Shown here one piece after another: positions 20,958 through 23,715 of a DNA stretch of 48,363 nt; position 1 is the stretch's first letter; every line of letters starts with the position of its first letter. A program made the translations under genes and the position numbers. The notes beneath the pieces were generated by a model. That model was given only the letters and a program-made list of their open reading frames with translations. It was not told the DNA's origin and did not search any database. The DNA is taken from positions 1 to 48,363 of the forward strand of contig CAZHYP010000001.1 of NCBI GenBank assembly GCA_964536885.1, read 5' to 3'. The DNA is from an uncultured Gammaproteobacteria bacterium (GTDB lineage Bacteria; Patescibacteriota; Patescibacteriia; Patescibacteriales; UBA12465).

Positions 20958-20985
20958 TAATACGCAAAATAGATTTATTTCTTCA
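20958..20985 (-). promoter_or_regulatory. ECF-type promoter, site 1 (TGAAGAAA-N12-GCGTATTA)
   Basis: The exact 8-N12-8 motif lies 39 nt upstream of the ATG at 20918. Identical boxes occur at 22257 and 23688. Confidence 0.6.
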
Positions 20986-20988
20986 AAA

Positions 20989-21017
20989 TTGACAAAATAA
21001 TCAAAACGGAGTAAAAA
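20989..21017 (+). promoter_or_regulatory. Sigma70-type promoter for the plus-strand gene at 21048
   Basis: TTGACA-N17-TAAAAA, back to back with ECF site 1. Confidence 0.45.
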
Positions 21018-21047
21018 ATAATTTGGAACTTTTAAAACTCAAGAAAG

Positions 21048-21698
21048 ATGAAAAAAATTTTATTGTTACTCCTAATTTTATTCTTGGGCGTAAATTACGC
21101 CAACGCACAAACAACTAGTAAGCTGATAAAAACTTGGGTACTACAGAACCCTGAATTGGCTGTAAATCACACTGTTGTAACTTTCTACGCCGATGGGCAA
21201 ATACTCTTTCAATTTTCAAACCTGCTCACAAAAAAGAGCGGATCCTCGAAATCCTCTTGGAAATTGTTGGATGCCAAAAAAAACATCTTACTCATCACTG
21301 ACAGCGAAGGTAAATCTTATCAGGTAGACTTCATAATAAGCGACAATACCATGACTATGACAAGCCATGGCGATGACATTGCTAATGCTAATTATTTTGC
21401 CGTCAGTGGCTCGTCGAGCGATTATTACATGAGCCGGGTTCAATTCGCAGTAGACACTTACGGAACCGACGCCTCTTTAAAGAAAAATGGTATGGCCAGC
21501 AGCAGCGCTGAAACCGGCTATTCTTTTCAGCCTCGTTACTCCAATTGTTTTGCTTGTGCTGGTTTGGGTCGTTGTACTTATTGCTACGGCACAGGACGAA
21601 CAACCTATAACTTTCGTGATTACGTAACCTGTTCTAGTTGCCGCGGCACTGGAACCTGCTATCTATGTGGAGGAAAAGGAAAATTAAAAAATTATTAA
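21048..21698 (+). CDS. Secreted protein with a C-terminal DnaJ-type zinc finger (4 x CxxCxGxG)
   Basis: Signal peptide ending ANA-QT. Motifs CFACAGLG, CTYCYGTG, CSSCRGTG and CYLCGGKG. Confidence 0.75.
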   Translation: MKKILLLLLILFLGVNYANAQTTSKLIKTWVLQNPELAVNHTVVTFYADGQILFQFSNLLTKKSGSSKSSWKLLDAKKNILLITDSEGKSYQVDFIISDNTMTMTSHGDDIANANYFAVSGSSSDYYMSRVQFAVDTYGTDASLKKNGMASSSAETGYSFQPRYSNCFACAGLGRCTYCYGTGRTTYNFRDYVTCSSCRGTGTCYLCGGKGKLKNY

Positions 21699-21713
21699 TT
21701 CCTTTCTTGCAAA

Positions 21714-21742
21714 CAAAAAGCCATCATAAGATGGCTTTTTTT
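21714..21742. terminator. Bidirectional terminator
   Basis: agccatc-ataa-gatggct with an A-run and a T-run. Confidence 0.75.
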
Positions 21743-21758
21743 GTTATGTAATCGAGTC

Positions 21759-22196
21759 TTATTTTTGACCTAAACCTAAGCCTAAACCACGACCCGCGCC
21801 CATGCCCATACCACGACCATTTCCTTCTAAACCAAGTTCATCCATTAAAGTTTTTTCTTGTTGACGTAAATTATATAATTCTACATATTTACTAAAATTA
21901 GTAGCATTAATCTTTTTTAGCATTGGCGAGTCGCTACCCACAGCGGTAACCCAAGCATTGTAATCATTGGCTTTAAGCGCTGCTTCCTCGGCGGTGCGTT
22001 TTGCTTCCATTTCAGTTTTTTGAGCCTCAGTTAATTCCACTCTGTTACCTTTTTCAAGACGCATAGCAGTGGAGGTTGCTGAGTTGTTGTTATTATGATT
22101 TCTACCAGCAGCTAAAGTCGCTGAAGCTATGCCTACAGTAGAGATTACTACTAAAGCAGATAAGCCTAAAGCAACTTGTGATTTTTTTATTTTCAT
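21759..22196 (-). CDS. Secreted LTxxQ-motif (Spy/CpxP-like) protein with a Gly-rich tail
   Basis: Signal peptide, LTEAQKTEMEAK, and the C-terminal tail GRGMGMGAGRGLGLGLGQK. Confidence 0.6.
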   Translation of the reverse strand: MKIKKSQVALGLSALVVISTVGIASATLAAGRNHNNNNSATSTAMRLEKGNRVELTEAQKTEMEAKRTAEEAALKANDYNAWVTAVGSDSPMLKKINATNFSKYVELYNLRQQEKTLMDELGLEGNGRGMGMGAGRGLGLGLGQK

Positions 22197-22256
22197 AAAA
22201 TTGTTTGCTAATTTAATTTTTTAACTTATTTTTTTATTAGAACCGGTTCTGTCTAG

Positions 22257-22284
22257 TAATACGCAGTCGAAATATTTTTCTTCA
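22257..22284 (-). promoter_or_regulatory. ECF-type promoter, site 2 (TGAAGAAA-N12-GCGTATTA)
   Basis: Exact boxes 60 nt upstream of the ATG at 22196, immediately after the upstream terminator. Confidence 0.6.
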
Positions 22285-22320
22285 AAAAAATCTTCTCTTA
22301 AATATTGAGAAGATTTTTTA
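22284..22320 (-). terminator. Intrinsic terminator after the sigma/anti-sigma operon
   Basis: atcttctc/gagaagat hairpin followed by a U-run on the minus strand. Confidence 0.7.
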
Positions 22321-22322
22321 TT

Positions 22323-23114
22323 TTATTTATTTTTACAATTATTGCCGTGTTCACAAATCATCGGTAGTGGCATTCCAGGTATAACAGGCGGCAACGGTCT
22401 CTTAAAGAAACCGCGTCCAGGACCAACTGACATCACTTCTTCAACAATAAAAGTGCGATTACTAATTTTTTCACCAGCTAATCTAACAGGACGATCAACT
22501 TTTATTTTTTTAGCATCTGATTCATCTTTAGTTTCTATTACCCAAGCTTCACCGCCCCGATCAACCAAATTATAGGTGGTGCTATCTATCTGAGATATAA
22601 TCATCCCCATCAATCGTCCATTTTCAGGACTCGACCAATAATCAAGCCGAGGATTGATCACTCGATCATACATCGGCGCCTTCTCTCCTAAAACGTCATC
22701 AATAAAACGATCAACTCCCATAGCACTAAGAGCGCCACCAAAAATTAAACTAACAACCAGTGTTCCTAAAACGATTAATTTTGGTGAATATTTATAGCCT
22801 TTTTTAGTATGTTTAATATAATAAAAGACAGAAACGGCAAAAATAGCTAAACAGATAATCCAAAAAAATGGCACAATCACAAACAAAGCTTCAAAGTTCC
22901 TAGGATGGGTTAGGCCAAAGCCAGATTCCTCACCGGTTAACATATAAAAAATTAAAGAAGTAGCAACTGCTCCTAAAACCAGAGATAAAACACCCAAGGT
23001 CCAGATTAAAGAGTTTTTAAGTAAAAACTGCCACTTTGGTTTCGGGGTTATTTTTTCTTCTTTTATTTTTTGCAAAACGCTGTCATTAAAATTTTTATCT
23101 TCTAAGTTTTTCAT
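22323..23114 (-). CDS. Polytopic membrane protein, putative anti-sigma factor
   Basis: Its start overlaps the stop of the sigma gene by 4 nt. It has about 4 TM helices and a C-terminal extracytoplasmic domain. Confidence 0.6.
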   Translation of the reverse strand: MKNLEDKNFNDSVLQKIKEEKITPKPKWQFLLKNSLIWTLGVLSLVLGAVATSLIFYMLTGEESGFGLTHPRNFEALFVIVPFFWIICLAIFAVSVFYYIKHTKKGYKYSPKLIVLGTLVVSLIFGGALSAMGVDRFIDDVLGEKAPMYDRVINPRLDYWSSPENGRLMGMIISQIDSTTYNLVDRGGEAWVIETKDESDAKKIKVDRPVRLAGEKISNRTFIVEEVMSVGPGRGFFKRPLPPVIPGMPLPMICEHGNNCKNK

Positions 23115-23680
23115 ATTTTTATCTGTTGCTTAGTAAGTTCCTTTTTAAACTCACTTTTAGCTTTATTCATCAGTGATCCGACCGTACCCACTGGTTTTTT
23201 AATAATATCAGAAATTTCTTGATAATTTTTTTCTTCTAAAAATTTAAGCACTAATACTTCACGATATTTTTCCGGCAAAGAATATAAAACTTTTGCCACA
23301 TTATCTTTTAAATAAATATTATCGAGTTCTTTTTCAATATTAATATTAGAGGCTAATTTTCTAGCACTTTCATCTTCTAAATTTGTACTGTGACCTTCAG
23401 CGCGAACACTTAATTTACGATGCTGACTAATTACTTGATTGCGAGCAATCGCATATATCCAAGAAGAAAACTTTAAACTAGTATCAAAGTCGTTTAGATT
23501 CAAATAAACTTTCAAAAAGATGTCCTGTAATAAATCTTCGGCGTCCTCATCACGAACACTGGTAATACGCCTGATATAATTAAACAACTTATTCTTATAG
23601 CGCTCAATAATCAACGCAAAACTGGCCTGATTATTCAGAGCTAAAGCTACTAATTCTTCATCGCTATAATTCTCAGTCAT
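23111..23680 (-). CDS. ECF-type RNA polymerase sigma-70 family factor
   Basis: Region 2 reads LFNYIRRITSVRDEDAEDLLQDIFLKVY. Region 4 reads EVLVLKFLEEKNYQEISDIIKKPVGTVGSLMNKAKSEF. Confidence 0.85.
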   Translation of the reverse strand: MTENYSDEELVALALNNQASFALIIERYKNKLFNYIRRITSVRDEDAEDLLQDIFLKVYLNLNDFDTSLKFSSWIYAIARNQVISQHRKLSVRAEGHSTNLEDESARKLASNINIEKELDNIYLKDNVAKVLYSLPEKYREVLVLKFLEEKNYQEISDIIKKPVGTVGSLMNKAKSEFKKELTKQQIKI

Positions 23681-23687
23681 ACCTTTA

Positions 23688-23715
23688 TAATACGCGGAGA
23701 TTAATATTTTCTTCA
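23688..23715 (-). promoter_or_regulatory. ECF-type promoter, site 3 (TGAAGAAA-N12-GCGTATTA), probably autoregulatory
   Basis: Exact boxes ending 7 nt before the sigma gene ATG at 23680. The site overlaps the malic-enzyme stop codon. Confidence 0.6.

Follow-up and report, generated by a model that had tools for sequence, protein, structure and literature searches.

In a 48,363-nucleotide (nt) contig stretch from an uncultured bacterium (assembly GCA_964536885.1, contig CAZHYP010000001.1; hereafter the window), one pair of short boxes, TGAAGAAA-N12-GCGTATTA, occurs three times: before the gene of an extracytoplasmic function (ECF) sigma factor, before the gene of a secreted protein of 145 amino acids (aa; p145), and before the gene of a 133-aa membrane protein (p133). 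We consider it very probable that these three box pairs, called P1, P2 and P3 here, act as promoters for RNA polymerase loaded with the ECF sigma factor of the same locus, which would then be autoregulated and govern a small regulon. The original prediction had proposed such an autoregulated ECF regulon, and the proposal gains support from the conservation of the boxes among related loci, the strand on which they lie, the three positions that they share across genomes, and the SigW-like character of the sigma factor, with autoregulation as the most plausible arrangement.

For the occurrence of the motif in the window, an exact pattern search returned three sites, all on the minus strand (Table 1). 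This agrees with the three identical pairs of 8-mers at 12-nt spacing that had been described for the locus, and their recurrence had been called far beyond chance; indeed, when the window was shuffled 100 times with its dinucleotides preserved, the exact motif never arose. Allowing 3 mismatches added a single site (34603-34630), where 1.2 are expected by chance. We rejected this site as a fourth copy, considering that it is at chance level and lies inside a 210-aa open reading frame (ORF), and regarded it as a coding coincidence. The possibility of a common repeat scattered through coding DNA had also been raised, and nothing of that kind was seen in the window beyond this one chance-level site. 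The N12 spacers of the three sites bear no resemblance to one another, which argues that the sites are not a simple repeat. Strong terminator hairpins, identified by RNA folding, end the sigma operon, the p145 gene and the p133 gene, and we therefore read the region as three separate transcription units, each with a box pair at its start.

For the comparison with related loci, we assembled 160 loci carrying relatives of the sigma gene from genome and metagenome collections, together with nine loci around the closest relatives, giving 169 loci and 1.84 Mb in total (individual loci carry labels such as L081 below). Matches were scored at a threshold of at least 14 of 16 positions, with first-order Markov shuffles as the control, and CGTA is invariant among the scored sites because the scan required it. 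The search gave 175 matches on the strand of the sigma gene and 2 on the opposite strand; shuffled sequence gave about 2-3 per strand. By position, 70 matches lie before the sigma gene, 67 between its partner gene (described below) and the next gene, and 15 after the p145 homologue. In most loci, a pair of the form tGAA(G/A)(A/G)AA-N12-14-(G/A)CGTA(T)TA is found within 200 nt upstream of the sigma gene, and the box pair upstream of sigma orthologues is conserved from 92% down to about 43% protein identity. The consensus of the close clade is TTnTTTTGAAGAAAA-N11-TGCGTATTA. More distant clades carry TGAAAGAA with a spacer that is 1-2 nt longer (N13/14), compared with TGAAGAAA-N12 in close relatives; in other words, the -35 variant changes together with the sigma clade. 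Conservation of the boxes in related genomes, which had been suggested as a check, is thus borne out by the same three positions and by the strand bias.

One further match at 14/16 is found, in several relatives, within the SpoU-type methylase gene that precedes sigma (L081 6212-6239, L082 6220-6247, L166 8240-8267). The window lacks this match, which is conserved as part of a coding sequence, and we treated it as a coding coincidence, which it probably is, although it may be an internal promoter. The same motif also stands after the partner gene in three metagenome-assembled genomes labelled Deltaproteobacteria or Desulfatiglans (L053 at 9487, L067 at 9320 and L071 at 9319; sigma factors 43-45% identical), where the genes that follow it encode small, secreted proteins that are rich in Gly and contain DKDGDGxCDN repeats. 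Therefore, either this type of ECF sigma factor and its promoter occur beyond Patescibacteria, or these bins are contaminated.

The protein encoded downstream of P1 contains the Pfam domains Sigma70_r2 (residues 24-90) and Sigma70_r4_2 (residues 129-176) and no further domains in its 189 aa, and it matches the NCBIfam model TIGR02937 (sigma70-ECF) at 97.2 bits, above the cutoff of 42.9. Its best named NCBIfam models are those for SigW, each below its cutoff (NF007223 at 111 bits vs 209, TIGR02948 at 99 vs 243), and its best match in the PDB is Bacillus subtilis SigW (5WUQ, E 5e-24). By these matches, the protein belongs to the ECF family and is not a SigW equivalog. The malic-enzyme gene upstream has TGA as its stop codon, and these are also the first three bases of the -35-type box of P1.

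From the 7 nt between the -10-type box of P1 and the sigma start codon, a leaderless or near-leaderless sigma mRNA had been predicted. Orthologues of the sigma factor are mostly 194 aa long, and those of the window, L161 and L162 have 189 aa, with five N-terminal residues fewer. In these three loci the -10 box lies 6-7 nt before the ATG, compared with 22 nt, forming an A-rich leader, in the relatives with a 194-aa sigma factor. A deletion of about 15 nt in this sub-lineage appears to have moved the start codon close to the -10 box. With transcription starting at the usual 6-8 nt past the -10 box, the sigma mRNA would be leaderless or have a leader of 1-3 nt. The short distance thus stands, and a near-leaderless mRNA would be specific to the sub-lineage with the 189-aa sigma factor. 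Translation without a Shine-Dalgarno site seems normal for this organism, since a Shine-Dalgarno-like 4-mer at -20 to -4 was found for only 3 of the 40 ORFs of at least 100 aa in the window, which has a GC content of 35% and A-rich regions upstream of its ORFs. By its homologues, the organism belongs to Patescibacteria, near Falkowbacteria.

The second gene of the P1 operon encodes the partner protein, whose start overlaps the sigma stop codon by 4 nt (ATGA). Its AlphaFold model, with a mean predicted local distance difference test (pLDDT) score of 76, comprises an N-terminal helix placed in the cytoplasm, three transmembrane helices and an extracytoplasmic five-stranded barrel, and a loop with the sequence KHTKKGYKYS is highly conserved. 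For the external barrel, Foldseek returned OB folds, among them IF1 and proteasome Rpt subunits, at a probability of about 1.0. Searches of Pfam, NCBIfam and the PDB, the Pfam scan including 32 relatives, found no known anti-sigma domain in the partner; neither a zf-HC2 nor an RsiW domain was found, and Pfam returned no meaningful family for the 32 relatives. The gene had been called an anti-sigma factor in the original prediction, and what stands of this is an overlapping membrane-protein gene that is conserved together with sigma, while the protein itself matches no known anti-sigma family. The U-tract of the terminator that follows the operon extends into the -35 box of P2.

The P2 box pair ends 60 nt before the ATG of the p145 gene. 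In the family alignment, p145 has a signal peptide, one LTEAQ motif (LT(E)AQ across the family), an NDYNAWV motif and a Gly/Met-rich tail. None of 28 members of the p145 family matched Pfam LTXXQ or Metal_resist, and the match of p145 to the NCBIfam model for CpxP was weak (E 1e-4, 22 bits vs a cutoff of 148). When the p145 profile was compared with the PDB, the top match was Salmonella ZraP (3LAY), which aligned in register over the full length at a marginal E of 0.012. The AlphaFold model is confident only in the helical core (residues 55-125), and Foldseek found no match for it in the PDB at E<=0.001. A Spy-like chaperone had been proposed here: the single LTxxQ motif, the signal peptide and the ZraP profile match point that way, and the marginal E value and the missing Pfam and Foldseek matches do not. 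p145 may therefore be ZraP- or Spy-like, a lead rather than a result.

Just downstream of P2 lies a perfect palindrome, AGAACCGGTTCT, which is conserved in L081-L084, L161, L162 and L166. An RNA hairpin was rejected as the reason for this sequence in the window, where the fold reaches -1.6 kcal/mol (z 0.5); the palindrome may be an operator for another regulator or reflect a constraint on the initially transcribed sequence. More distant relatives have long structured leaders between P2 and the p145 homologue (L002 9636-9765, z -2.95; L007 6562-6675, z -1.76), and no such structured leader is present between P2 and p145 in the window.

The P3 box pair ends 39 nt before the ATG of the p133 gene. 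p133 combines a cytoplasmic N-terminus carrying a CC...HHCC motif with external GGC(R/P/A)M(Q/K)N repeats. Neither Pfam nor NCBIfam gave a match for the protein, which belongs to a narrow family (19 representatives at E<=1e-3) in which the number of external GC(P)M motifs varies; metal binding would be a guess. In three relatives with a 194-aa sigma factor (L081, L166 and L167), P3 is followed by genes for a lipoprotein of 193-197 aa, an RND_mfp/HlyD-type adaptor of 624 aa, an ATP-binding cassette (ABC) ATPase, a MacB_PCD+FtsX permease and, at the end, the p133 homologue, before which there is a gap of 31 nt that contains no motif. In L162, this efflux operon is reduced to a 127-aa C-terminal FtsX fragment (12222-12605), and in L161 to an 85-aa fusion of a lipoprotein signal peptide with the C-terminus of the MacB permease (12134-12391). 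In the window, everything between P3 and the p133 gene is lost: by blastn, positions 20959-20988 are 97% identical to P3 of L161, and positions 20895-20944 are 100% identical to the region just before the L161 p133 homologue, with 11 of the 12 positions of the P3 spacer equal between the two loci. Comparison of these loci indicates that a MacAB-type pump was deleted stepwise in the lineage with the 189-aa sigma factor, leaving P3 directly before p133. Because of the intact operon in relatives, the intermediates in L162 and L161 and the mapped junction, we regard p133 as a regulon member by descent and the last surviving gene of the efflux operon. The position of the third site upstream of a Cys/Met-rich protein, as first described, is therefore correct for the window, with the amendment that in relatives P3 heads an operon of lipoprotein, MacAB-type pump and p133, in which p133 comes last.

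An identical 11-mer, AAGGTATGACT, is found downstream of both P1 (23677-23687, minus strand) and P3, and the deletion junction holds the start of a six-codon ORF, ATGACTATATTTATAAATTAA. These sequences may have been left by recombination or may derive from the coding sequence of FtsX.

Table 1. Features of the sigma factor locus, with positions in the window
Feature	Position	Strand	Basis or remark
P1, predicted promoter of the sigma/presumed anti-sigma operon	23688-23715	-	exact match; orthologous pair upstream of sigma in 70 loci at >=14/16
P1 -35-type box TGAAGAAA	23708-23715	-	overlaps TGA stop of malic-enzyme gene
P1 -10-type box GCGTATTA	23688-23695	-	ends 7 nt before sigma ATG at 23680
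ECF (group 4) sigma factor, 189 aa	23111-23680	-	Pfam, NCBIfam TIGR02937 and PDB matches
Partner, presumed anti-sigma factor, 263 aa	22323-23114	-	homologue adjoins sigma in 142/160 loci
Intrinsic terminator hairpin of sigma/partner operon	22285-22319	-	RNA fold -13 kcal/mol, z -3.7
P2, predicted promoter of the p145 gene	22257-22284	-	exact match; between partner gene and p145 homologue in 67 loci
Perfect 12-nt palindrome AGAACCGGTTCT	22239-22250	-	6 nt downstream of P2 -10 box
p145, secreted helical protein, 145 aa	21759-22196	-	ATG at 22196; homologue follows partner gene in 38 loci
Bidirectional terminator of p145 (-) and the convergent p216 gene (+)	21715-21740	both	terminator scan; RNA fold -15.3 kcal/mol, z -4.5
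P3, third predicted promoter	20958-20985	-	exact match; directly before p133 in window
Six-codon ORF MTIFIN, ATGACTATATTTATAAATTAA	20929-20949	-	starts 8 nt after P3 -10 box, at deletion junction; read from sequence
p133, single-pass membrane protein, 133 aa	20517-20918	-	ATG at 20918; last P3-operon gene in L081, L166, L167
Intrinsic terminator after p133	20471-20513	-	RNA fold -21.1 kcal/mol, z -6.9

In the circuit that we propose, TGAAGAAA would act as the -35 element, contacted by sigma domain 4, and CGTATTA as the -10 element, contacted by sigma domain 2. A basal amount of sigma factor would be supplied by read-through from the malic-enzyme gene, as there is no terminator before P1, and a leaderless sigma mRNA could function in this organism, where Shine-Dalgarno sites are hardly used. 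The co-translated partner with its three transmembrane helices probably holds the sigma factor at the membrane until an envelope signal, which may be sensed through the external OB-fold domain, leads to its release. The released sigma factor would then amplify its own operon from P1 and switch on P2 and P3. P2 would drive p145, which is exported and helical, has a Gly/Met tail and may be similar to ZraP or CpxP, and P3 would drive the lipoprotein, the MacA-like adaptor, the MacB-type ABC exporter and p133 in close relatives, and p133 only in the window.

In its workings, this circuit resembles the ECF circuits of SigW type in Firmicutes, and an autoregulated ECF sigma factor with a small envelope regulon is a textbook mechanism. 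Besides SigW being its best PDB and NCBIfam match, the sigma factor shares with SigW of the sigW-rsiW system (ECF30-type) the two-domain ECF architecture; a TGAA-type -35 and a CGTA -10 likewise form a promoter upstream of an operon of sigma factor and membrane partner, and the targets are envelope and efflux functions. SigW promoters have the spacing TGAAAC-N16-CGTA, in which 22 nt separate the T of TGAA from the C of CGTA, vs 21 nt here. In B. subtilis, a -10 of CGTA makes a promoter selective for SigW, with TGAAAC as the -35 (PMC5758882). The architecture noted in the original prediction, a GAA-containing -35 and a CGT-containing -10, is comparable to these promoters. The systems differ in that the sigma factor of the window scores below the equivalog cutoffs (111 vs 209 bits), the -35 is TGAAGAAA or TGAAAGAA and not TGAAAC, and the partner has three transmembrane helices and an OB fold instead of being an RsiW-type zinc anti-sigma factor. 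The host also differs, as it is a member of Patescibacteria that is largely without Shine-Dalgarno sites, and its sigma mRNA would be near-leaderless.

Similar comparisons can be drawn for the targets. Like ZraP, CpxP and Spy, p145 is exported, mainly helical and equipped with an LTxxQ-type motif, and it has a Gly/Met-rich C-terminal tail as in ZraP; induction by an envelope-stress regulator would be a further shared trait. It differs in having a single LTxxQ motif, and in the negative Pfam (28 members) and Foldseek searches described above. MacAB-type tripartite ABC efflux operons under ECF or envelope-stress control match the P3 operons of L081, L166 and L167 in content, whereas in the window the pump genes are absent and the terminal Cys/Met protein survives, with remnants of the pump in L161 and L162.

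We weighed three other explanations of the boxes. They could be promoters that serve another alternative sigma factor, with its gene in some other part of the genome, of which 48 kb are seen here, so that the adjacent ECF sigma gene would be a target and not its own activator, and it is in keeping with this that the ECF sigma factors of B. subtilis overlap in promoter specificity (PMC5758882). However, the motif accompanies the sigma gene in 70 or more divergent genomes, co-oriented and immediately upstream, and its -35 and spacing variant (TGAAGAAA-N12 vs TGAAAGAA-N13/14) shifts with the sigma clade. Patescibacteria, moreover, have very few sigma factors, and we hold this explanation to be highly improbable, although it ranks first among the three. 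Next in rank, and also highly unlikely, is that the motif is a short dispersed repeat or the binding site of a repressing or activating transcription factor. Neither box repeats the other, directly or in inverted form, their orientation follows the downstream gene (175 vs 2), the box spacing and the distance to the start codon fit a -35/-10 promoter, the CGTA -10 is of the SigW class, and the coding DNA of the window holds only one chance-level match with 3 mismatches. Since the orientation is strict and the two boxes are asymmetric, we favor an ECF promoter over a repeat or the site of a dimeric regulator, even with the perfect palindrome AGAACCGGTTCT beside P2, where an additional regulator may act.

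The three identical copies could also stem from recent duplication or gene conversion, with no selection on each site and with only P1 functional. All three copies match at 16/16 positions, where the orthologous sites of relatives often differ at 1-2 positions, and the 11-mer AAGGTATGACT follows both P1 and P3, as such an origin might leave them; yet the spacers of the three sites are mutually unrelated, every site has a positional orthologue in relatives, and the P3 spacer is nearly that of L161. We consider this the least probable of the three, with very little in its favor overall. Returning to promoters read by the adjacent sigma factor, several points weigh against this reading or limit it. 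Many ECF promoters typically have an AAC core in the -35 box, which is missing here. No anti-sigma domain is recognisable in the partner, and its presumed role is suggested by gene position and co-conservation; the function of p145 is marginally supported, given the ZraP E value and the Foldseek result. Start sites and sigma-dependent expression in these uncultured genomes are predictions from sequence. Finally, considering that 48 kb of the genome are seen, the regulon may have further members, and there may be another ECF paralogue outside this stretch.

Patescibacteria, also known as the candidate phyla radiation (CPR), have minimal genomes and cannot be grown alone, and to our knowledge almost nothing is known of gene regulation in them. 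Among the papers searched, nothing relevant to ECF systems in Patescibacteria or the CPR was found, and the paper that reclassified ECF sigma factors (PMC7826278) makes no mention of these phyla, at least in its main text. Here, a whole circuit can be read from sequence, with a promoter consensus, a sigma factor that would be autoregulated, a partner and targets. The conservation of this circuit across many CPR lineages offers a handle for the interpretation of metatranscriptomes and for heterologous tests, and the OB-fold partner is a candidate for a new type of anti-sigma factor. Relative to the known mechanism, the case adds modest value: the conservation is CPR-wide, the partner is uncharacterised, and the decay of the regulon can be seen. 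Going further, we tentatively suggest, with somewhat more doubt than confidence, that the sigma/partner pair responds to envelope stress throughout Patescibacteria and that the partner represents a new class of anti-sigma factor, in which a short N-terminal helix and a conserved cytoplasmic KHTKKGYKY loop would replace the canonical domain, with three transmembrane helices and, outside the cytoplasm, an OB fold as the sensor. Ancestrally, the system would have governed a ZraP-like periplasmic protein and a MacAB-type exporter, and the genome studied here would show a regulon undergoing reduction, in which the pump has been lost and the sigma mRNA has become leaderless.

Upstream of P3, an insertion of ~690 nt that is not found in L161, L162 or L166 carries the gene of a 216-aa protein (p216; 21048-21698) on the opposite (plus) strand. 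The ORF has no homologue in the 160 related loci. Its product has a signal peptide and C-terminal Cys-rich repeats of the CxxCxGxG type, and it weakly matches the zinc-finger region of DnaJ (E 0.004).

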